The notes beneath the pieces were generated by a model, which was not told the DNA's origin, searched no databases, and worked only from the letters and a program-made list of their open reading frames with translations. 64,000 bases of DNA from an uncultured bacterium (lineage in GTDB: Bacteria; Muiribacteriota; Ozemobacteria; Ozemobacterales; Ozemobacteraceae). Below, piece after piece: positions 17,325 to 30,216 of the stretch. Within the stretch, counting starts at the first letter, position 1. Each line of letters opens with the position of its first letter. A program made the position numbers and the translations under genes. The stretch spans positions 41,965-105,964 of the forward strand of contig CAYYUI010000005.1 of the NCBI GenBank assembly GCA_964474705.1, read 5' to 3'.

Positions 17325-17354
17325 AAAAAAAAAGACCACCCATCAGGGTGGTCT
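17325..17354 (-). terminator. rho-independent terminator downstream of hfq
   Basis: AGACCACCC-ATCA-GGGTGGTCT hairpin with adjacent A-run on + strand (T-run on the - strand). Confidence 0.6.
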
Positions 17355-17372
17355 TCTCGTTAAGACTCAGCT

Positions 17373-17606
17373 TCAGCCGGGAAGATTAAAGTTGTCAGGC
17401 AACTGAACAGTAGAAATGGCGTGCTTGTAAATCAACTGTTTTTTGCCTTCTGATTCGAGGAGAATCACAAAAGTGTCAAAGTCAAGGATTGTTCCCTGAA
17501 TCTGGAACCCTTTCATCAGAAAGATCTTAACAGCTTCCTTTTCGTCTTTCAGATACTGAAGGATATTGTCTTGTATGTTTACAGCAGGCATTTCTATTAC
17601 CTCCAA
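17373..17606 (-). CDS. hfq: RNA chaperone Hfq
   Basis: Sm1/Sm2 motifs including IYKHAISTV; 77 aa; GGAGG RBS upstream. Confidence 0.9.
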   Translation of the reverse strand: MEVIEMPAVNIQDNILQYLKDEKEAVKIFLMKGFQIQGTILDFDTFVILLESEGKKQLIYKHAISTVQLPDNFNLPG

Positions 17607-17649: not shown

Positions 17650-20643
17650 TCAATTTTCATGCTCGCTGCATTTGATACCTTTTTCATCGCCGGTCCAGGT
17701 GCCTGAGGTCGGACAAAGTGGAACGCCGCTTTCTTTAGCGGCATTGTCGATGATCGCGGAATCGCTGCTCAACGGCGTTTTTGTGTTCTGCAGATATTTC
17801 AGCATGCGCGTCCGGTTGTAGCTGCAGCAGGCGTGTTCATCGAGAATCAGCGGAATAGCGGGAACATCGTTGTGCTGATTGCAGAAAATCAGGCCGCTGT
17901 TTTCATCGCTTCGGATTTTGCCGCCGGCAGGGCAGCTTTTTTCAAGTTCCGGGGTATAAAACATCCGGTTGAGAAAGCAGATTGTTCTGGCTAGATAAAA
18001 GTCTAATACCTTCCTGATGAGTGGGTGGCCGAGTTTAAACCTTACCTGCAGCCAGCCGGCAATATTCTCGAAGTCAGTCGAAACATAGATCAGTTCTTTG
18101 TCGTCGCGAACTCTGATCGTTGTTTCAAGGCCCAGGTTCTGGGTCTGAAGCTTGAAAGCGAACAGGTTGCGTGCGAACCTTTTCATGAATTCGTCATTCT
18201 CGGCTTTCCCGGTCGTAGCCGTCGAGAATTCGTTCAATGTCCCGTCTTTATAGGAATAGCGTGTATATATTCTTATGAAAGGAGCGAGAGGATTGCTGAC
18301 CAGCGATTGAAGCATTCCGGGAACAAGTGCCTGGATATTTTTCCAGTCGTAGATGATTTCGATGAAACTTTCGGGATTGAAAGGGATGATCTGGCCGGTC
18401 AATTCAGGTGTGTCGCTGGCTTCAAGTGGTCTGGCGCTAAGATAAACCGCATTTCGGTCAGCAAACGCATGTATTTTTTGCCTGCCGAAGTTGAATACGC
18501 ATCGGTCGGGGGTTTCGCTCAGCTGCTGTTTGACGTTGATCTGAGAAAAGTAGTTGTTAAGAAGTGCCAGAATCGTCGTTCCTGAGGTCGATTCGGTTTC
18601 AAGACGAACAATTGTTGATTTTCTCAGTTTAATCAACTTTTTGATGAAAACAGTTACCGATTTGTCGGTAAAGTTGGCAGCTGCCGGAACAAAAGCTGCC
18701 AGCTGGCGAAAAAACTGCGGCCCGAAGGAAATAACCAGCGGATAGTGGCTTGCGGGCGGTAGCCCGGCAAACAGCTTGTCGACAGGACTGACCGGGTTAG
18801 TCTGTTTTTGGCCCGTCGATTGATCATCTTCCTGCGGTGTCGTTTCCGGGGCCGGTGCATCTGAAGTCAGGTCACTTTCAAGCTCGATGGCCGGTGCGGC
18901 CGGTGCGCCGGTTTCGGCTTCTTCAGCTTTAACAGATTTTCTATCGAGGACGTAGCTGCTGAGAACCGGTTCTTCAAGCGAGCGAATGCCGGCCTTGATG
19001 TCGGAGCAGAGCTTAGTCATGTCTATTGCCTGATCGTATAGTTTTTCTTCCTGGTACAGTCTGGCGATGCTCATGAGAATATTGGTGACTTTTTCTTTGT
19101 CGGCCCGGTCGCCCATGAGGGTGTGATAATCGGCCATAGCACCATGATATGCCTTGAGGCGTACGGCTAGATAAAGAGTGTTGTCAGGGTCTTTCAATTT
19201 TGGATCGGCTTTGAAAGCTTCACGCAGATAAGTAATCGCCGAATCGAAATCGCTGCGGTCGAGATAAACTCGTCCGATGTGCAGTAGGACTTCTCCCTGG
19301 CCTGGAACCAGCTGATTCGCCTTGAGCAGCAGATTGAGGGCTTTTTCTGCTTCGCCGTTCCGATAATATGCCCACCCAAGGGTGTCGATGTAGGAGGCGT
19401 TATTTTTTTCGAGCTGAACCGCGGCTTCGGCAAGTTCGATAGCCTTGCCGATGTTGGTGTTTTGCTCGGTATAGAGGTAGGCCAGGTTATTCATGGCTTC
19501 GCCTGAATCGGGTCTGATTTTTATCGCCTGTTCATAGTGCTCTGCTGCGTTTTTCAGGTCGCCTGCCGCATAATATACGGTTGCCAGATGATAATGAGGC
19601 TCATAAACGTTCATTTTCATCGACAGTGAGCGGGTAAGCTCCTCGACGGCCTTTTTGTGGTCCTGGTTTTTGAATGAAGCCCAGCCAAGGCTGTCTCTGA
19701 ATCCGGGGTTTTCCGGGTCCATGTCGACGGCACGCTGACAGAGCTCCTGGGCAGACTGAGTGTTGACTCCATATTCTGCGTAAAGATAGCCAAGGTTATT
19801 GAGAGCATGCGGATTGTTGGGCGAAAGTTCGAGAATTTTCTTGTAGACGGCTTCTTCAAGCCAGAAAGGTTCTGGTTTGTTGCGGCCCTGATAATCTTCG
19901 TGCAGACCCATGTAAATGCCAAGAAGCGAATTCTGCAGCTTGGGATTTCGTGGGTCCAGAGATGATGCTTTCTCATACGAGGCAATCGATAAAAACAGTG
20001 AAGAATCCATGGAACCAAGAAACCTGAAAGCCTGCCCCATGACGTAATAATAGTGGGCGGTGCGTGGAATCAGAGTCAGGGCTCTTTTCAGGTCTTCTTC
20101 AGGTTTCATCGGCTCAAAATAGCCATTGGGACGGTTGCGGAGTTCCTGGAAGATGATGCCCTTTGCCAGCCAGTAATCAGGATTTTTTACCAGTCTGTCT
20201 TCTGAGTCGATCAGCAGATCTTCCAGATTTTTATCCTGCAGGTTGGATTTATCGTCGCTTTTATCGATGCTTAGAAGCAGACCGGTAAAGAAAATGTCGC
20301 GCAGTCTCTCTTCTTCCGAAAAGTCCTTTTTGCCGGTGCTTTTGAAAAAACTGGTGCTGAGCTTAATGAGCTCGTCGCGTCGCGGAGTGTCGGACAGCTT
20401 GATCAGGCTGAACCACCTGGTTATGGCATGCAGCTGCGCCAGAGTGTTGCCCTGTTGCTCGTTCAGATATTTCTTGAGCAGCTGCAGGTTGAAATCGCTT
20501 GGTTTCGTTTTTTCAAAGCGAATTTCTTCGTGGCCGAAAAGCGGCAGGCCGAAATCGAAGTTAATTTCGCCGGAAACCGGCGAAAATAAGGCAGCTATGA
20601 AAAAAATGGCAAGACAGAAAACCCTGTATGATTTGTTCAGCAT
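17650..20643 (-). CDS. large secreted TPR-repeat protein (997 aa) with Cys-containing C-terminal domain
   Basis: Signal peptide, at least 8 TPR-like repeats (AxxxYxxAxxLDPxN patterns), ~350 aa non-TPR C-terminus; 27 nt downstream of the vWA gene. Confidence 0.6.
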   Translation of the reverse strand: MLNKSYRVFCLAIFFIAALFSPVSGEINFDFGLPLFGHEEIRFEKTKPSDFNLQLLKKYLNEQQGNTLAQLHAITRWFSLIKLSDTPRRDELIKLSTSFFKSTGKKDFSEEERLRDIFFTGLLLSIDKSDDKSNLQDKNLEDLLIDSEDRLVKNPDYWLAKGIIFQELRNRPNGYFEPMKPEEDLKRALTLIPRTAHYYYVMGQAFRFLGSMDSSLFLSIASYEKASSLDPRNPKLQNSLLGIYMGLHEDYQGRNKPEPFWLEEAVYKKILELSPNNPHALNNLGYLYAEYGVNTQSAQELCQRAVDMDPENPGFRDSLGWASFKNQDHKKAVEELTRSLSMKMNVYEPHYHLATVYYAAGDLKNAAEHYEQAIKIRPDSGEAMNNLAYLYTEQNTNIGKAIELAEAAVQLEKNNASYIDTLGWAYYRNGEAEKALNLLLKANQLVPGQGEVLLHIGRVYLDRSDFDSAITYLREAFKADPKLKDPDNTLYLAVRLKAYHGAMADYHTLMGDRADKEKVTNILMSIARLYQEEKLYDQAIDMTKLCSDIKAGIRSLEEPVLSSYVLDRKSVKAEEAETGAPAAPAIELESDLTSDAPAPETTPQEDDQSTGQKQTNPVSPVDKLFAGLPPASHYPLVISFGPQFFRQLAAFVPAAANFTDKSVTVFIKKLIKLRKSTIVRLETESTSGTTILALLNNYFSQINVKQQLSETPDRCVFNFGRQKIHAFADRNAVYLSARPLEASDTPELTGQIIPFNPESFIEIIYDWKNIQALVPGMLQSLVSNPLAPFIRIYTRYSYKDGTLNEFSTATTGKAENDEFMKRFARNLFAFKLQTQNLGLETTIRVRDDKELIYVSTDFENIAGWLQVRFKLGHPLIRKVLDFYLARTICFLNRMFYTPELEKSCPAGGKIRSDENSGLIFCNQHNDVPAIPLILDEHACCSYNRTRMLKYLQNTKTPLSSDSAIIDNAAKESGVPLCPTSGTWTGDEKGIKCSEHEN

Positions 20644-20670: not shown

Positions 20671-21714
20671 TTATTTCCAGGTGCGGGTTCTGGTGAGTTT
20701 TTGCCCGCCTTCGTTGATTGTGAGCTCGATTGAGCCAGGCTGATTGATGTCGCTGGCTACCGAAAGTTCGATTACCTGAACATTGTTGATTATCTGGCCA
20801 AGCTTCTTGAACCAGTCTGCAAGCCTGCTGCTGTCGGGAACATAGGAATAATAGCCATCGGTGCTGTTGGAAAGGTTGCGGAGATTGGTTACCTCGAGCC
20901 AGCCGAAGCCGAAAACAAAAACCGAAATATTATGCATCTGGCATCTTCTGATAACATCATCGATGCTTGCGATCGAGGCATTATCGTTGCCATCGGTGCT
21001 GAGGATCAAGAATCTGAAGTGCGGGCGGGCCTGGATTTTTTCTACTCCGGTATCGACCCCGTCAAACAGCGCGGTGTTCTGCAGAGGAATGCGTTTCTTG
21101 ACAGCTGTTTCAAGAACGGTTTTATCGGCGGTCAGAGTCTGAACTTCATGAACCTTGTTGTTGAACTTGATCACCCCGGCGGTGAAAGGAATAAGAAGCT
21201 GGCCGATAAGCGCTGACGAGTTATCTTCGATGGCGGTAAGGTCTTCGGGAAACATGCTGCCCGAGTAATCCATGATATTGGCAAAACTCATCGGGTCGGC
21301 AAGGTCGCTATATGCATGCAGTGGCCTTACCCGGTCGACTATGATGCTGATATCAGCTCCGGATTTGTCTTTGCCTGTTACCGTCACGTTCGCGGCATTG
21401 ATGACTTTGACCGGACTTGCGTCTTTGTCTGTCATCGATACGAACATGAAGAACTTTTTCGGGCTGCTTTTCTCGATGCCGTGAATGCGCAAAGCATTGC
21501 TGAAGTCGTCTTCGGGCTTCAGGTTAGGGTGGAAGGCACTGATGAAGGTAAGATAGCGTCGCAGGGTTTCGAGAAGTGAATTTGAAGCCCCGTAATTCGA
21601 AGCCAGAAGATACCAGAGTATCCCGAGGCACAATAACAGAAAAAGAACCAGAAACAATATATATTTCCAGGCTGGAATTCTAAGCCTTTCGCCTCCTGGA
21701 GCTACTTCAACCAT
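20671..21714 (-). CDS. membrane-anchored von Willebrand factor A (vWA) domain protein (BatA/BatB-like)
   Basis: N-terminal TM; MIDAS motif DYSGSM; STDGND motif. Confidence 0.75.
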   Translation of the reverse strand: MVEVAPGGERLRIPAWKYILFLVLFLLLCLGILWYLLASNYGASNSLLETLRRYLTFISAFHPNLKPEDDFSNALRIHGIEKSSPKKFFMFVSMTDKDASPVKVINAANVTVTGKDKSGADISIIVDRVRPLHAYSDLADPMSFANIMDYSGSMFPEDLTAIEDNSSALIGQLLIPFTAGVIKFNNKVHEVQTLTADKTVLETAVKKRIPLQNTALFDGVDTGVEKIQARPHFRFLILSTDGNDNASIASIDDVIRRCQMHNISVFVFGFGWLEVTNLRNLSNSTDGYYSYVPDSSRLADWFKKLGQIINNVQVIELSVASDINQPGSIELTINEGGQKLTRTRTWK

Positions 21715-22350: not shown

Positions 22351-22716
22351 TCACGTGTTGCGGAGACTGAGAAGTCTGCAGATCATATAAATGCCGGTGC
22401 CATACAGAAGACTTATCAGGCCAAGGGCAAGATGAGGTCCGATGCGCTGAGGGGTTTCGAGATTAGCGAGAACCAGGATTATACTGATGATGCAGGTTAT
22501 CAGGCCTGTCATCCAGGCTCCATGACCGGCGGCCAGCAACTGATTGCCATCCTTGTGTTCTGAGTTTTCGACAAGAAAATACGAACCGGTGGTGCCAAGA
22601 ATTATGACAATCGCCGCGGGAAAGTCTATGAACATGGAGATGTTGCCGGAACTATAAACCAGAAAAGCTGCGAGCCCTGCCGGTATGACTACACCAAGAT
22701 AATTGTTTGTATTCAT
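22351..22716 (-). CDS. small polytopic membrane protein (4 TM)
   Basis: ATG at 22716 with AGGGAG RBS; hydrophobic helices. Confidence 0.45.
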   Translation of the reverse strand: MNTNNYLGVVIPAGLAAFLVYSSGNISMFIDFPAAIVIILGTTGSYFLVENSEHKDGNQLLAAGHGAWMTGLITCIISIILVLANLETPQRIGPHLALGLISLLYGTGIYMICRLLSLRNT

Positions 22717-23011
22717 GCGTTTTCTCCCTGGTTTGTGTTTTGGTTGATTGATATCTTGCATAGAGCATGCCAGAAACGAAATAAATTCCAGTCTGCTCAA
22801 AAGCGGGTTTTATCTGGCGATAGGGAAAATTTGCTTGCCAGAAAGGGAAAATGTCTTCATGTGTGGTTGTTCTTTGACTTCCGGCCGGAAGCATGCTATT
22901 TGTGAAGGCAGAATAGTTTGATTGCTGCCGGCTGCTGTAGATTGCAGACTGCTATCTTGCATGGCGCGATGCAGGGAAAAGGTTGGGCCGGCGTAGGCCG
23001 GCAGGAAAAGG

Positions 23012-23803
23012 ATGAATCAGCAGAAATTTGCATATTTGAAGAGCATTTTTTGTGGCTATGTAGACTCTTTTCGCGATGAAAAAGGCAGTCTGCATCCGAT
23101 GCTGCAGCTAAAATACGACCATTCTCTGCGCGTAGCCGATGAAGCGCGTGAGATCGCCTCAGACCTTGGCTGGGGCAGCGAAGATATCAGGCTTGCAGAA
23201 ACTGTCGGGCTTTTCCATGATGTCGGCCGCTTTTCGCAGTTTCAGGAATTCAAAACCTATTATGACCCGAAATCTGTTAATCACGGTTGTCGAGGCTTTG
23301 AGGTTCTGCAAAAATCCGACTGGCTCACCGGCCTCTCCGATGCCGAGAAGTGCACGATTCTCGAGGCGGTGCGCCTGCATAACTGTCACCTGTTACCGGA
23401 GAATCTTTCCCCGCAGCTGGAGCGCCATGTAAATCTGGTCAGAGATGCCGACAAGCTCGATATTTTCTTCGTTCTCAACAATGCCATCGAAGAAAGACGG
23501 CTGAATGACAACCCCGGAATAATCTGGAACCTGCCTCGAAATATGCCGCCCAGCCGGGTGATCCTCGACGACCTTTGCAATCATCGGCAGGCCCGCTACG
23601 AAAATGTCAAATCAGAAGCAGACTTTTGTCTGCTGCAACTCTGCTGGATCTACGATCTTAATTACCTGCCTACCATCAGAAGAGTAGCCGAAAGAGAAAT
23701 TGTGACGCGGATTGCCAGTACACTTCCGGTTCACGATGATATCAACGCTGCTCTGCAGCATCTGCACGACTTTTTGCATAAATCCGTCTCCGGGCAGCAG
23801 TAG
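23012..23803 (+). CDS. HD-domain phosphohydrolase family protein
   Basis: H...HD...D metal-binding pattern (YDHSLRVADEA...GLFHDVGRF...DADKLD). Confidence 0.7.
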   Translation: MNQQKFAYLKSIFCGYVDSFRDEKGSLHPMLQLKYDHSLRVADEAREIASDLGWGSEDIRLAETVGLFHDVGRFSQFQEFKTYYDPKSVNHGCRGFEVLQKSDWLTGLSDAEKCTILEAVRLHNCHLLPENLSPQLERHVNLVRDADKLDIFFVLNNAIEERRLNDNPGIIWNLPRNMPPSRVILDDLCNHRQARYENVKSEADFCLLQLCWIYDLNYLPTIRRVAEREIVTRIASTLPVHDDINAALQHLHDFLHKSVSGQQ

Positions 23804-23820
23804 CAGAAGTTCATAACTCT

Positions 23821-24936
23821 ATGAAATCAGCAGGTATCTCCCGAGTTTCTTCGTTTGACAATGTTCGTGCCCTTGCTGTCATCTGCATGATCATTTCTCA
23901 TGTCTCTCTTATGCTTGGCTCTGCAGATGCCTGCGCAACACCGGTTGGCCGTTTCATGAACGATTTTTGCGGTACCGCCCCAGCGGCGCCTGTATTTATG
24001 CTGCTGATGGGTATTTTTTTTGTGTTTCCACATGATCGATCCCTGTCGGTTAAAGTTTTTCGTGGTCTCAAGCTTTTTCTGCTGGGCATAATGCTGAATT
24101 TCCTTCGCATGGTGATCCCTTTTTACATTCTGTCGATAAATGCTCCGGAAATGTTCGACGGCATGGTCACTGCTCTGCAGGTGGGCAGGGATGTCGTTTT
24201 CTGGCGCATTCTTTACAATGTCGATATTCTTGGATTTGCCGGTGTGGCATATATCATCCTGGCTCTTTTGCAGCATCTGCTGACCAGAAGCTGGCAGTGG
24301 ATCTCCGTCGGTGCGGTAATGATTTTTGCGGCCCCGTATTTGTGGGGGGCCGGCGAAAGCCTGGGGATAGCATTTTACCCGCTTCAGCCTCTCTGGGGGC
24401 GTGCATTTGTCATGGGCGCACCAACCGATACTGCTTTTCCGGTTTTTCCCTGGCTGGTTTTTCCAATCATGGGTTTGTTGATCGGCCGGTTGCTGAAATC
24501 TGACGTGCCTGAGTCTGAAATTGCAGCCGGAATGACCCGTTTCGGCCTGTTGTTTGCAATTCTCGGTGCCGCATTTGTTTCAGTTTACGGAACCGGGCAA
24601 TTTGGTGACTATTATCGCATGTACGCCGGCGGCACTTTTCTGGTAATGAGTTTTGCTCTGTTGTGGACAGCCATGTTCATGCGGCTGACCTTAAAGGGTT
24701 ATATGGGGTGGGCATCTTCGGTGCTGACTTTCTGGAGCGAAAACCTGACGCTGATTTATTGTGTACAGTGGTTCTGGTTCGGGTTCAGCATTCTTCTGCC
24801 GTATTTCCGGCGTGTCGACAGTCCCATTGTGCTGATGGCCGTGACTCCGGTGTTTTTTCTGCTGACCTGGGGTTTTACCAGGCTGCTTCTTTTTTCTCCG
24901 CGCTTTATTGGAATCTTTCGCTGGTTTACCCGCTGA
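23821..24936 (+). CDS. polytopic membrane protein, DUF1624/acyltransferase-3-like
   Basis: N-terminal FDNVRALAVICMIISH motif typical of heparan-alpha-glucosaminide N-acetyltransferase-like (DUF1624) proteins; ~10 TM. Confidence 0.5.
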   Translation: MKSAGISRVSSFDNVRALAVICMIISHVSLMLGSADACATPVGRFMNDFCGTAPAAPVFMLLMGIFFVFPHDRSLSVKVFRGLKLFLLGIMLNFLRMVIPFYILSINAPEMFDGMVTALQVGRDVVFWRILYNVDILGFAGVAYIILALLQHLLTRSWQWISVGAVMIFAAPYLWGAGESLGIAFYPLQPLWGRAFVMGAPTDTAFPVFPWLVFPIMGLLIGRLLKSDVPESEIAAGMTRFGLLFAILGAAFVSVYGTGQFGDYYRMYAGGTFLVMSFALLWTAMFMRLTLKGYMGWASSVLTFWSENLTLIYCVQWFWFGFSILLPYFRRVDSPIVLMAVTPVFFLLTWGFTRLLLFSPRFIGIFRWFTR

Positions 24937-25004: not shown

Positions 25005-28000
25005 TTATTTGGCTACTTCACCTTCGATGGTGCCTGATGGACGCTGACTGAGAATGTGGTTGAACTGTTCGTTGTAATCCTGGAGAATGCGCAGAATGCC
25101 GCGTTTGATCGACAGCAGTTCGTCGCTGGCCGGGCTGACTTCGTGGTTCTTTTTGATTTCTTCTTCAATGGCGTCTTCAAGTTTTTTGACTTTGTCGGTC
25201 ATGATCGGCAGATACTTGCTGACTATTTCGCGCTGTTTCGGGAACGGCAGTGATTTCCAGTATTCATTGTAGACGCTTCTGATCAGGTAAATACCCATGG
25301 TGTTGTTCTTGAGATAGTCGAACAGCTGGGTGATGGTGCGGCCGATCGGCTGCGGTTTGTCCTGTTGATACCAGAGCTCATACTGCACCAGCTCATTGTT
25401 GTATTCGATACCGTATTTGCTCTGAACCGTATCAGCGATAAGCTCATAGCGCAGTAGCAGGTAGACCATGTAATGCTCTTCGAGCTTTTTGGCCGGAATC
25501 AGGCCGTAGCTCGACCAGAGAACCGGGTAGGCATCGTTAGTAAGAAGAGCGTGGCAGTTGATTTTTGCGGTGTTCTGGCGATAGAGATTGTGCCATTGCG
25601 TTATGGCGCTGATATTATACGGAGCGATGCCGTGTAGAGTCTGCAGCAGACTGATTTCATAAGGGTTGCGGGTCGGAGCCACGGTTACGCCGATGTCTCC
25701 TTTGCGCAGCGCATCCTTGATTTCTTCAGAAAGTTTGCTGTTCTCGTCGGCAATGCCGAGGGTGACGATATTCATGCGCTGTGGCTGGTTGTTGCCGCGA
25801 TCGTTCATAGTGATCAGCGGTGTCGACTGGTTCATCATGCTTTCGACCAGACTCTTCTTGAAGCCCTTGCGCACTGAGTCCTTCCAGTGAATGAAATCTT
25901 CGATGCCACCGAACAGGCGGCGCTCGATAATACCGCGGCAGTATTTGACGATTTCTTTTTCGAGTGAATTGCCTTCAGGATTGGTGAACTTTTCCCAGTT
26001 TTCCTTGAGGTTGATCTTGACCAGAAAGTCACCTTCGATGTCGTTGTTTGAAAGGTCGCCGAGCAGATATTTGTAGAACGGCTCGATATCGCGATCTTCA
26101 AAAATATAGGTTCTGATGAAATCCTGAACTTTCGAATAAGGCTTGATGCGCTCGAGGCAGTGTTCATACTGTCGTTCGATCATGCCATCCTTGGAAATCT
26201 GCGCCAGCTTTGTCGAGAAAACCTCGACCTGTTTGCGTATCGACTGAGACTGCACGTTCAGGTATTTAAGAAAATCTTCAGCACATGAAATACAGAACAT
26301 TTCATATTCCATGTCGACGGCTTCCTTGGCTTCTTTCAGCAGTTTATCGCGTTCGTCGTTGATGTCGGTCATGCGCAGCACAGTGCCGAGTTCCATGAGC
26401 TTGCCGCCGAGGCCGGCAAAGCCACCGAGCTTTTCCTTGAGCCGATTGGCTATTTCACGGTATTCACGCTGTTCTTTTTCGAGTTTGCCCTTGATTTCCT
26501 GGACTTTACGCGACAGAATTTCGCGGGGGTAGCGGGTCAGATATTTTTCGAAGGCGACGAGAAAGTCGATCGCAATGTGAGCGCCAAGGTCGGGGTTATT
26601 GATAATTTCGATAACCTTGTCAAGAAGATGCTCGCCTGCTTTGACGGCATTCTGTTCGAAATTGACCCTGACCTTGGCTCTGATCTCGTCTTTTTTGACG
26701 CGGTTCTGATTCATTTCATCGATCTGGCGAAGAATGAAAGCCGAGGCAGATTCGCCTTCCTTCTGTTTGTTCACGGTGCGCAGCGAATGGAACATCGGGT
26801 TGTCCCAGTATTGCTTGCGATCGATGATTTCTTTGGTCATCATGAACAGGCCTTCAGGAGTGAGATCGATTTTGGTCGGGTTGTTTTCGGCGAATTCCTG
26901 AACCATGCTGTCGATAAGAATTCGGTCTACCGAGAGTTTCAGCCAGTAGGTGACATCCATCGAGAGTTTGTAGGTATAGAGGTCGCGGATGACGTCGAGT
27001 GGGTAATAGAAGCTCTTGAAACCGGCTGAGCTGAAGCATTTCAGCTGCTTGCCCTCCAGGTCTGAACTGTTTTGCCCGAGAATCTGTGAAGCGTTGTCGA
27101 GCATCGAGTTCTGCGCCTGGCGAAGCTGGGTGGCAAGTTTTGTAAAAATCAGCTCGGAGGCGATGCTGTAATAGGTCGGGATGTCGTCCTGATTGCTGGT
27201 GCCAAGCAGGTAGCACTGATCGAAAGGCGGTTCTTCACTGACCGAACCGTAAGTGGTTGTGTCGTTGCTCTTGCCGATCGGGCCGTAGTTGACCATAAAC
27301 TTGTTGCGGCGGTCCTGGCTGATAATGTCTTTGGCGGTACGGGTCGGCGGAAACTTCTCTTTGTTCATGAAATAGAAAGTTTCTACGAGTGAAGCATAGC
27401 CATTGCCTTCGAGACGCCCGGTTGAATTGACGTTCGGGTCGATGGAAATCTGGGTGAAGGCTTCCGGAGTCAGCTGGATGCCAACGATGGTCGGCTTGCC
27501 TTTGCCGCCTGAGAGCTGATAATAAGCCATTTTGAGCAGGTAGGCGATGTCGAGAAACATGCCGGCGCCTGACCCGCCGCACAATGAACCGACGACGTAG
27601 AATTCAGGGGTGAGAATCTGGCCCTGCTTATTGGTCAGGGGAACGATGATGTCGTCCTGATTGACATTGCTTCGGGCCATAATTTTGCTCATCTTGGCCT
27701 TGATCTGCTGAAAAATCTTCTGGATATCGACAAAAATGCCGAAACGGCCGGTAAACCTGAACTGGTGAGCTCCCTGGCTTATCTGACCGATGTGATGTTT
27801 CAGTTTCTGCGGGAACCATTCGTAGAGATAATTGTAGGTTTCAGAATCCAGATTTCCAGTTATCTGGCCGGCATTCTGGATGTTGATCTGATGATACTCA
27901 CTTTCGGTGAGTTTTGAGCCGGTCTTGGGATCGTCTTCAGGCTGGCTGGCGTCGAAAATGTCTGTGTCGATGCAGAGAAGATCGATAAAATCAGGCAGCG

Positions 28001-28157
28001 CCGGTTCGCCTTTTCCTGAGATTGCATAGGCCTTCTTGATCTGGGGGCTATTGAGAAAAGTTTCTTTGAAATTGATCAGTGATTTTTTGCCGGTACCCCC
28101 GAGCCCTACAATCAGAGCAGGGTTGAGTGCAATGCGGTTTTCATAGTTTGTGCTCAT
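25005..28157 (-). CDS. giant tubulin/FtsZ-superfamily GTPase-like protein (Tubulin_2-type N-terminal domain + ~800 aa helical/coiled-coil extension)
   Basis: T1 loop ALIVGLGGTGKK, FtsZ-like CIDTD (NTD) motif, T4 loop VVGSLCGGSGAGMFLD, in the spacing expected for the tubulin/FtsZ fold. Probable start is ATG at 28157 with GGGAG RBS; the ORF track start is 28238. Confidence 0.6.
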   Translation of the reverse strand: MSTNYENRIALNPALIVGLGGTGKKSLINFKETFLNSPQIKKAYAISGKGEPALPDFIDLLCIDTDIFDASQPEDDPKTGSKLTESEYHQINIQNAGQITGNLDSETYNYLYEWFPQKLKHHIGQISQGAHQFRFTGRFGIFVDIQKIFQQIKAKMSKIMARSNVNQDDIIVPLTNKQGQILTPEFYVVGSLCGGSGAGMFLDIAYLLKMAYYQLSGGKGKPTIVGIQLTPEAFTQISIDPNVNSTGRLEGNGYASLVETFYFMNKEKFPPTRTAKDIISQDRRNKFMVNYGPIGKSNDTTTYGSVSEEPPFDQCYLLGTSNQDDIPTYYSIASELIFTKLATQLRQAQNSMLDNASQILGQNSSDLEGKQLKCFSSAGFKSFYYPLDVIRDLYTYKLSMDVTYWLKLSVDRILIDSMVQEFAENNPTKIDLTPEGLFMMTKEIIDRKQYWDNPMFHSLRTVNKQKEGESASAFILRQIDEMNQNRVKKDEIRAKVRVNFEQNAVKAGEHLLDKVIEIINNPDLGAHIAIDFLVAFEKYLTRYPREILSRKVQEIKGKLEKEQREYREIANRLKEKLGGFAGLGGKLMELGTVLRMTDINDERDKLLKEAKEAVDMEYEMFCISCAEDFLKYLNVQSQSIRKQVEVFSTKLAQISKDGMIERQYEHCLERIKPYSKVQDFIRTYIFEDRDIEPFYKYLLGDLSNNDIEGDFLVKINLKENWEKFTNPEGNSLEKEIVKYCRGIIERRLFGGIEDFIHWKDSVRKGFKKSLVESMMNQSTPLITMNDRGNNQPQRMNIVTLGIADENSKLSEEIKDALRKGDIGVTVAPTRNPYEISLLQTLHGIAPYNISAITQWHNLYRQNTAKINCHALLTNDAYPVLWSSYGLIPAKKLEEHYMVYLLLRYELIADTVQSKYGIEYNNELVQYELWYQQDKPQPIGRTITQLFDYLKNNTMGIYLIRSVYNEYWKSLPFPKQREIVSKYLPIMTDKVKKLEDAIEEEIKKNHEVSPASDELLSIKRGILRILQDYNEQFNHILSQRPSGTIEGEVAK

Positions 28158-28276
28158 TAAGACGCTCCCGGAAGAGAATGATTTAAGGCAGTATAACAAT
28201 TTTACCTTACCCCGGCAATCTGTTATACTGAATTTCATTCAGGCCATTTATTCAACCCACTTTATGGCAGGAGAAA

Positions 28277-29224
28277 ATGATGAAACCACTTGAATTGAGC
28301 TGCATAACCGCGATCTGGAAATCAGCCCTTGCCCGGCTCGACGAGAACATGGCCGGCATTGGCAGTGACCTGCAGTTGTGGTTTCCATGGAGCGGTATCT
28401 GGCGCGGTCATGATCGCAACGGCAGTCTGCCGCCAACCGACCTGCCCGAAGATCTTGCTAAGCCCGGTGTCAGCAGATTTGGCGGTCGCTTCTGGAAAGC
28501 TTTTCCGATAAATGGTACCAGCTGGCTTGTAAGTGTCAGGGCTCCGGTATCAGCCACCCCTGAAATGGAAAACTGGGAATTGCCCTCTCATGTTCAGGAA
28601 TCTCTGCGGATTTTGAGTGATTTTGTCCGCCTGGAGTGCCTGCTCGGTCTGACGATGAAAATTCTTGAAAACCAGTCGCACGAACACGTCGGTCATTGGG
28701 ATCGCGTTCGTAACCTGAGCGTCGCCATCGGCAGTGAAATGGGGCTCTCACCCCGCGAACTCGCCGATCTTGAACTTGCCGCCATGCTGCATGACATTGG
28801 CAAGGTCGGACTTCCTGACGAACTGCTCGACATGGCCGGTCCCCTTTCACCCGAAGAACGCAAGCGTGTCGAATCGCATTCGCTTGTCGGCTCTGCGATG
28901 ATTCGTGAAATACCCGGAATGGAAATGGTCGCCGAAATCGTTCTCGGGCATCACGAAGCGATCGACGGCAGCGGCTATCCACGCGGGCTGAAATTCGAGG
29001 AAATACCGTTTGGGTCGCTCGTTATTGCGGTTGCTGACGCCTTCGATGCCATGACTCATTACCGGCCATATGCAATCGAGCGCACTTACCACGAAAGTTT
29101 CGATGAAATGAAACGCGAAAGCGGAAAATATTCTCCCGAAGTCATGGCAGCCCTCGAAAAGGTATTGCGCCGGCTCGGCATACTTGAAACCAAGCCTCTT
29201 GTCGGAACCAGTGAAGACTGGTGA
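28277..29224 (+). CDS. HD-GYP domain protein (putative c-di-GMP phosphodiesterase) with N-terminal uncharacterized sensor domain
   Basis: LHDIGKVGLPDELL...HHEAIDGSGYPRGL (HD and GYP motifs). Confidence 0.8.
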   Translation: MMKPLELSCITAIWKSALARLDENMAGIGSDLQLWFPWSGIWRGHDRNGSLPPTDLPEDLAKPGVSRFGGRFWKAFPINGTSWLVSVRAPVSATPEMENWELPSHVQESLRILSDFVRLECLLGLTMKILENQSHEHVGHWDRVRNLSVAIGSEMGLSPRELADLELAAMLHDIGKVGLPDELLDMAGPLSPEERKRVESHSLVGSAMIREIPGMEMVAEIVLGHHEAIDGSGYPRGLKFEEIPFGSLVIAVADAFDAMTHYRPYAIERTYHESFDEMKRESGKYSPEVMAALEKVLRRLGILETKPLVGTSEDW

Positions 29225-30216
29225 ACAGAAAATATAGCTATCTGGAGGAAATTGTGAATCGGAAATCTTTGCTTCTAACGGTGCTGCTGTTTGTCGTTCT
29301 GTCTTTGCCGGCATCTGCCGGTATGTTGCGCGTCGGCCTGGTTCTGTCGATCGGTGGTCTGAGAGATGAATCTTTCAACGATGCCGCCTACGAAGGAGTC
29401 ATGCAGCTGCGTCGCGAGGGAGACTGCATCGTCGAAGTCATAGAACCGGGCAGCATAAGCTCTATAGAGCCGGCTCTGCGCTATTTCTGCGAACGGAACA
29501 TGGATCTGGTCTGTGCGGTCGGTATTTTCGCCAACGATGCGGTGCGCCGTGTCGCCCAGGAATTTCCCGAGAGCAGGTTCGTGCTTCTTGACTCGGTTGT
29601 CACCGTGCCAAACGTACTTTCGATACTTTTTGACGAGGAGCAGGGTTCTTTCTATGCCGGCGCTTTTGCAGCAATGATCAGCAAAACCGGCAAGGTCGGC
29701 TTTCTCGGTGGCATGGATTCGCCGGTTATTGCCAGCTTCGAGCGTGGGTTCAAAAACGGGGTTCGCTTTGTTAAGCCAGAAGCTGCCGTTATTTCGCGCT
29801 ATCTCGGGAACACTCCCGAAGCCTTCGATATGCCTGATAAAGCACAGACTCTGGGCCTGGATATGGCCAAAGAAGGTGCCGATGTCGTTTACCATGCTTC
29901 CGGCAAAAGCGGACTCGGACTGATTCAGGCTTCACGCCGCGGCAACTTTCTGGTTATCGGTGTTGATTCCGATCAGAGTCGCACCGCTCCCGGAAAAGTG
30001 CCGGCCAGCATGGTCAAGCGTATCGATACCGCTCTGGTAAAAGCTGCCGATGTATTGCGCCTGGGTACCTTTGAAGGCGGCATCTGGACTCTTGGCCTCC
30101 AGGATCATGGCATCGAGCTGGTTCTTTCTCGATTCAACCGCGATCTGATGACGCCCGAAGCAGTGTTGAAGCTCAAGGAAATCGAAGACTTCCTGATTCA
30201 CAAGGACGAAAAATAA
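29221..30216 (+). CDS. BMP-family (PnrA/Med-like) nucleoside-binding lipoprotein
   Basis: Signal peptide; LRVGLVLSIGGLRDESFNDAAYEGV and FLGGMDSPVI motifs of the basic membrane protein family; 4-nt overlap with the HD-GYP gene. Confidence 0.7.
   Translation: MNRKYSYLEEIVNRKSLLLTVLLFVVLSLPASAGMLRVGLVLSIGGLRDESFNDAAYEGVMQLRREGDCIVEVIEPGSISSIEPALRYFCERNMDLVCAVGIFANDAVRRVAQEFPESRFVLLDSVVTVPNVLSILFDEEQGSFYAGAFAAMISKTGKVGFLGGMDSPVIASFERGFKNGVRFVKPEAAVISRYLGNTPEAFDMPDKAQTLGLDMAKEGADVVYHASGKSGLGLIQASRRGNFLVIGVDSDQSRTAPGKVPASMVKRIDTALVKAADVLRLGTFEGGIWTLGLQDHGIELVLSRFNRDLMTPEAVLKLKEIEDFLIHKDEK

Follow-up and report, generated by a model that had tools for sequence, protein, structure and literature searches.

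What does a tubulin/FtsZ-superfamily protein of more than a thousand residues do when it is encoded on an ordinary bacterial chromosome away from the division genes, and does it work alone? The stretch of DNA analyzed here (the window, 64 kb) is core chromosome of Riflebacteria (Ca. Rifleibacterium) and carries ligA, tig, tRNAs, comEC, and hfq, in agreement with the sequence-only reading, which had placed the gene in neither a division (dcw) nor a plasmid-partition context. An FtsZ gene was sought throughout the 64-kb window and none is encoded.

The open reading frame proposed for this protein (25005..28238, minus strand) runs without interruption for 1077 aa, but its first 27 codons lie outside the gene. 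All 47 of 47 full-length orthologs are 1040-1053 aa long with the N-terminus MSxN(Y/F)E, a Shine-Dalgarno sequence (GGGAG) lies 9 nt 5′ of M28, the upstream ATG is not conserved among relatives, and the 27-codon extension coincides with a promoter-like site. The gene, called TUB here, was therefore assigned as 25005..28157. An inverted repeat overlaps its promoter, and the left arm and adjacent bases of the repeat are kept in relatives.

25005..28157, minus strand: TUB (FtsZl1/Tubulin_2 gene), 1050 aa plus stop codon, start at M28 of the 1077-aa frame
28189..28230, no strand: perfect 10-nt inverted repeat CAGTATAACA-N22-TGTTATACTG, overlapping the promoter-like TTGCCG-17-TATACT of TUB

The superfamily assignment made from the sequence was confirmed by profile search. 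TUB matches Pfam Tubulin_2 (PF13809) at E = 8.1e-52, far beyond chance, scoring 177 bits where the gathering threshold is 27 bits, and over model positions 1-354 of 356. The suggested likeness to the large, poorly studied Tubulin_2-type proteins is upheld. TUB belongs to FtsZl1 (Pfam Tubulin_2), a family that forms the most divergent branch of the tubulin/FtsZ superfamily. In a phmmer search, 1124 cluster representatives (clusters at 50% identity) were found at E<=1e-3, mostly of 900-1200 aa. A Pfam scan of TUB detected Tubulin_2 alone, with no FtsZ_C and no recognizable cyclic-nucleotide-binding domain, and a scan for transmembrane segments found none. Structural comparison of the AlphaFold model with Foldseek gave TubZ, CetZ, gamma-tubulin, and FtsZ as top matches with a probability of 1.0, and the model aligns over 80-90% of most tubulin, CetZ, FtsZ, and TubZ chains, a coverage that implies a complete two-domain tubulin core. 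The modeled fold comprises a Rossmann-like nucleotide-binding domain, the core helix H7, and a C-terminal domain. When the C-terminal fragment was searched by itself, no FtsZ C-domain was found.

The T1, CIDTD, and T4 motifs first noticed in the sequence are present in the order given, as ALIVGLGGTGKK (residues 41-52 of the 1077-aa frame), CIDTD (89-93), and GSLCGGSGAGMF (217-228). Within TUB the elements of the nucleotide-binding domain are placed as follows.

27078..28157, minus strand: GTP-binding domain, residues 1-360, Rossmann-like (S1-S6) plus helices assigned to H6/H7
28089..28106, minus strand: T1 GLGGTG, residues 18-23
27960..27968, minus strand: DTD motif
27744..27773, minus strand: T3-like GAxQxRxxGR
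27561..27578, minus strand: T4 GGSGAG
27093..27095, minus strand: near-invariant N355, T7 position, where the helix assigned to H7 ends

Conservation was assessed in 71 aligned homologs and in a more distant set of 191 family members, all below 50% identity. The T1 glycines G18, G20, G21, and G23 are invariant in the 71 and 98-99% conserved in the 191, and in the latter set GLGGTG, DT(D), GA..R..GR, S..GGTGSG, D203, N252.Y254, PF, and N355 are invariant or nearly so. The T4 loop in the clade of the window is GGSGAG, compared to the family consensus GGTGSG. The window sequence CGGSGAG does not match the strict signature [SAG]GGTG[SAT]G: it keeps the invariant glycines, with serine in place of threonine and alanine in place of the second hydroxyl residue. 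Of the distant members, 5 of 191 have serine at the first of these positions and 27 of 191 have alanine at the second, and the substitutions appear conservative. Judged by sequence, the nucleotide-binding loops T1 and T3 of TUB are intact, and T4 is probably so. In the T7 region, N355 is 97% and D354 57% conserved in the distant set, with no conserved Asp or Glu after them. The acidic catalytic T7 residues of FtsZ (NxDxxD) and alpha-tubulin (E254) have no conserved counterpart in the FtsZl1 family, and polymerization-coupled hydrolysis by TUB is therefore uncertain.

The remaining approximately 800 aa had been predicted to be helical and rich in coiled coil. The region is mostly helical, but the coiled coil was overstated: a crude heptad scan found coiled-coil-like segments at residues 469-521, 545-658, and 1010-1037 only, approximately 190 aa. 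In the AlphaFold model this part of the chain forms helical bundles and a single long helical hairpin, with residues 795-940 as an alpha/beta region.

26937..27035, minus strand: residues 375-407, a strand and a helix that may correspond to S7 and H9 of the tubulin/FtsZ C-terminal domain
25788..26936, minus strand: residues 408-790, all-helical, proposed insertion inside the C-domain (AlphaFold model, heptad scan)
26190..26582, minus strand: long helical hairpin 526-578/593-656 (AlphaFold model)
26373..26435, minus strand: Gly-rich hydrophobic hairpin tip SGFAGLGGKLMELGTVL, conserved within the clade
25008..25787, minus strand: residues 791-1050, alpha/beta (strands 795-802, 824-828, 834-844; helices 808-819, 852-863), then C-terminal helices

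G801, Y859, and H869 in the C-terminal region are invariant or near-invariant. A search of PDB structures with the helical region returned generic helical matches only.

Does TUB have partners? The sequence-only reading had called it stand-alone, convergent with a DUF1624-type membrane protein and divergent from an HD-GYP protein. Both neighbors were named correctly, and the surrounding genes are the following.

17329..17358: strong terminator-like hairpin after hfq
17373..17591, minus strand: hfq, last gene of the vWA-TPR-hfq unit
17650..20643, minus strand: secreted TPR protein, 997 aa (Pfam TPR families; signal-peptide-like N-terminus)
20671..21714, minus strand: single-pass membrane vWA protein, 347 aa (Pfam VWA, E 1.5e-14; intact MIDAS, DYSGS)
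22351..22800, minus strand: small MotA/PomA-like membrane protein (NCBIfam PomA, E 1.2e-8; Pfam MotA_ExbB, E 0.007)
23012..24936, plus strand: opposite-strand insert between TUB and vWA, splitting the operon
23012..23803, plus strand: HD phosphohydrolase (Pfam), within the insert
23821..24936, plus strand: DUF1624/HGSNAT-type acyltransferase (Pfam), within the insert, a membrane protein convergent with TUB
28277..29224, plus strand: HD-GYP (Pfam HD_5, E 2e-39; HHExxDGxGYP signature), divergent from TUB
29221..30216, plus strand: Bmp/PnrA-like binding protein (Pfam Bmp, E 3e-57)

On the same strand as TUB and 3.3 kb downstream lies the vWA gene, followed by the genes for the secreted TPR protein and hfq. 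By tblastn, the vWA protein is 40-48% identical over its full length to the vWA proteins of loci L005, L006, and L007, and its gene is the ortholog of the vWA gene directly 3′ of TUB in relatives. The protein consists of a 17-aa N-terminal tail (MVEVAPGGERLRI, conserved), one transmembrane helix, and the vWA domain with its MIDAS. A topology with the N-terminus inside and the domain outside is predicted solely from this N-terminal signal-anchor arrangement; the flanking charges are nearly balanced. The MVEV tail and transmembrane helix recur in all vWA orthologs and in proteins of 84 aa whose genes lie between those for TUB and vWA. The MotA/PomA-like protein, which matches the TM3-TM4 part only, is encoded upstream of vWA in the closest clade only.

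TUB, vWA, TPR, and hfq are contiguous in 10 related species with gaps of 9-180 nt, vWA directly adjoins TUB in 17 related loci, and it also does so in homologs from Melainabacteria and Eremiobacterota. In the clade with 84-91% identity the order is TUB-vWA-TPR-hfq without a break. In the clade with 67-72% identity it is TUB-small-vWA-G1-G2(-TPR-hfq), where small is a small membrane protein and G1 and G2 are two paralogous dynamin/MMR_HSR1-like GTPases following vWA; this contiguous cluster, headed by TUB, corresponds to the FtsZl1 neighborhood reported by Makarova & Koonin (2010). A gut clade has TUB-TPR-hfq without an adjacent vWA. Of all the neighbors, TPR shows the most constant linkage to TUB in the phylum, with synteny in 25 loci that include the ones without vWA. 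In the clade with 95-96% identity and in the window, TUB is parted from vWA-TPR-hfq by an insert of variable content: AspK and HD genes in L001-3 and L013, and a coiled-coil protein, a GAF-PAS-cyclase, and a MotA-like protein in L012 and L027. The operon was split by a recent 3.3-kb insertion in the lineage of the window, and the vWA gene in the split clade retains a conserved upstream segment. The two dynamin-like GTPases are an ancestral part of the cluster that is absent from the window, where tblastn with G1 and G2 of relatives found nothing within the 64 kb. TUB is not stand-alone, because the genes of its usual membrane partners are found 3.3 kb downstream, parted from it by a recent insertion. 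A functional link to DUF1624 was not supported by the comparison, as this gene adjoins TUB in the window only among the loci compared and the closest relatives, with a 96% identical TUB, have an aspartate kinase or GAF-PAS-cyclase there. The divergent HD-GYP/Bmp pair, in contrast, keeps its synteny with TUB in most Riflebacteria loci, although HD-GYP is missing in the gut clade and other phyla and lies 1-5 kb from TUB in several loci.

TUB is chromosomal and vertically inherited. Its dN/dS is 0.025 at a dS of approximately 0.93, uniform across the N-terminal, middle, and C-terminal regions, which demonstrates very strong purifying selection along the whole length. Between the same genomes TUB is 96% identical, compared to 83-86% for vWA and 71-76% for TPR.

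We give an even chance to the proposal that TUB is a GTP-binding, self-assembling scaffold at the inner membrane face, the cytoplasmic part of an envelope module with extracytoplasmic vWA and TPR proteins. TUB would bind GTP and self-assemble as a protofilament or higher oligomer at the inner face of the cytoplasmic membrane, and its helical region of approximately 390 aa would interrupt the tubulin C-terminal domain as an insertion. The long hairpin would form a projecting stalk that may contact the membrane through its Gly-rich hydrophobic tip. The assembly may dock on the cytoplasmic N-terminal tail MVEVxPxxxx[IL][RKQ][IV] (peptide MVEVAPGGERLRIPAWK) of the vWA protein and the small membrane protein, and a GTP-dependent cytoplasmic scaffold coupled in this way to the vWA(MIDAS) and TPR partners could organize or remodel the cell envelope, the role that Makarova and Koonin proposed for FtsZl1 (PMC2875224). 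Tail docking cannot be the whole story, because TUB persists in the gut clade with no vWA gene beside it. A bolder version is tentative and, in our estimate, less probable: FtsZl1 proteins would be cytomotive tubulin homologs with the C-terminal (activation) domain split by the approximately 390-aa stalk, whose filaments are tethered in reverse to FtsZ, with the membrane partners (the vWA protein and the 84-aa protein) presenting the N-terminal peptide to the filament. They would form a trans-envelope machine with vWA and TPR and serve as a housekeeping envelope or shape determinant in Riflebacteria. Such a role would explain how a 1050-aa protein stays 96% identical at near-saturated synonymous divergence.

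It is improbable that TUB instead belongs to a GTPase-centered biological conflict (anti-invader or abortive-infection) system, in which tubulin, coiled coil, and membrane vWA would assemble when triggered on infection. Neighborhoods of this composition with paired GTPases have been described by Kaur et al. (PMC7159879), and the two paralogous GTPases after vWA in relatives are compatible with them; G2 weakly resembles LeoBC/LeoA of the Eleos defense system (E 6e-8), a homolog of 39% identity in L005 sits amid four TIR-domain genes and one PIN gene, and the TUB-vWA insert differs between very close relatives. However, PADLOC gave no match for TUB or vWA, the cluster in the window contains no effector-type domain, and vertical inheritance with synteny kept beside housekeeping genes across the phylum, on core chromosome in the window, speaks against it, as does the extreme purifying selection (dN/dS 0.025), in contrast to conflict systems, which typically diversify fast. 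For G1, G2, and their neighbors, no Pfam match to DO-GTPase, GAP1, or FNIII appeared at E<=1 (assuming that the Pfam copy contains the DO-GTPase and GAP1 models), nor was a zinc ribbon seen at the N-termini. G1 and G2 matched only MMR_HSR1 and Dynamin_N at that threshold and have no N-terminal CxxC.

The full two-domain core of the model and the near-invariant T7 asparagine fit longitudinal contacts, and we consider it unlikely that TUB is a non-polymerizing GTP-binding switch or scaffold, acting as a nucleotide sensor under the control of c-di-GMP (HD-GYP) or cNMP (cyclases). The lack of a conserved acidic T7 residue, the HD-GYP gene kept beside TUB in most Riflebacteria loci, the cyclase of L012 and L027 (GAF-GAF-PAS-cyclase), encoded on the TUB strand between TUB and vWA, and the conserved inverted repeat that overlaps the TUB promoter between the two divergent genes all favor such a switch, yet the HD-GYP gene is missing from the gut clade, 1-5 kb distant in several loci, and unlinked to the family in other phyla, and TUB has no recognizable cyclic-nucleotide-binding domain. 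That TUB is a stand-alone cytomotive protein without dedicated partners is very unlikely: it is monocistronic in the window, with its own promoter-like site and opposite-strand genes downstream, but orthologous partner genes lie 3.3 kb away and are contiguous with it in most related species, and the segment upstream of vWA is conserved in the split clade. Least credible is an FtsZ substitute or accessory in division or a TubZ/PhuZ-type DNA-segregation motor, for although the fold is common to FtsZ, TubZ, and PhuZ, TUB is not in a dcw cluster but among HD-GYP, Bmp, HD, and DUF1624 genes, lacks an FtsZ_C domain and C-terminal peptide, has no PHROG match, is chromosomal and not on a mobile element, has no TubR-like or other small DNA-binding gene adjacent, and belongs to a family that the published analysis found alongside a conventional FtsZ (PMC2875224).

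As a discovery in its own right this finding is modest, since NCBI already labels the TUB orthologs "tubulin-like domain-containing protein". The family is large (>1100 clusters at 50% identity), and the searchable literature yielded no experiment on any FtsZl1 protein 16 years after its description. The Riflebacteria module offers a natural deletion series: some clades have the full set of six genes, others are without the GTPases, and others without vWA. This series, the unusually strong constraint on Riflebacteria TUB, and a model suggesting a complete two-domain core that was invisible by sequence in 2010 together yield concrete hypotheses on polymerization, partner-tail docking, and dispensable partners.

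Among known systems, the bacterial dynamin-like proteins (LeoA/LeoBC, BDLP) resemble G1 and G2 of the relatives, not TUB. The likeness lies in MMR_HSR1/Dynamin_N-type GTPase domains, long helical C-terminal parts, and a tandem pair, but these are weak matches (E 1e-5 to 6e-8), and the window has neither gene. To solved structures of CetZ, tubulins (gamma, Asgard, BtubA, OdinTubulin), FtsZ, and TubZ/PhuZ, TUB is 10-17% identical. It exceeds them in length by approximately 600 aa, has a helical region of approximately 390 aa apparently inserted in the C-domain, and lacks the conserved acidic T7 residue, the FtsZ C-terminal peptide, a Tubulin_C domain, and a TubR partner. The tubulin-themed GAP1-N2/DO-GTPase conflict systems (Kaur, Burroughs, Iyer & Aravind 2020, eLife 9:e52696; PMC7159879) were reported in Firmicutes and Actinobacteria. 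They share a tubulin domain with coiled-coil or helical regions, a membrane vWA predicted outside the cell, and paired GTPases (here in relatives). No GAP1, FNIII-repeat, or zinc-ribbon DO-GTPase was detected here, there is no variable effector array, and TUB is extremely conserved, not diversifying.

The closest counterpart is FtsZl1 itself, described by Makarova & Koonin (2010, Biol Direct 5:33; PMC2875224) as a protein of approximately 1050 aa with an FtsZ-like N-terminus, coiled coil, and helical C-terminus, and with vWA and GTPase partners. TUB shares this length and an FtsZ-like GTPase domain with T1-T4 inserts, a coiled-coil/helical middle, and a helical C-terminus, as well as the links to a vWA with intact MIDAS, divergent P-loop GTPases, and membrane or OmpA/MotA-like proteins, and the chromosomal location apart from division genes. 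It differs in its T4 loop (GGSGAG instead of GGTGSG). The linked P-loop GTPase, frequent but not universal in the family, was not found within the 64-kb window, the GTPases having been lost in its lineage and the operon split by a variable insert, and the partner that recurs most constantly in this phylum is a secreted TPR protein of 1000 aa. Whereas the 2010 sequence analysis did not find T6-H7 and the C-terminal domain (PMC2875224), the structural model of TUB implies a complete two-domain core.

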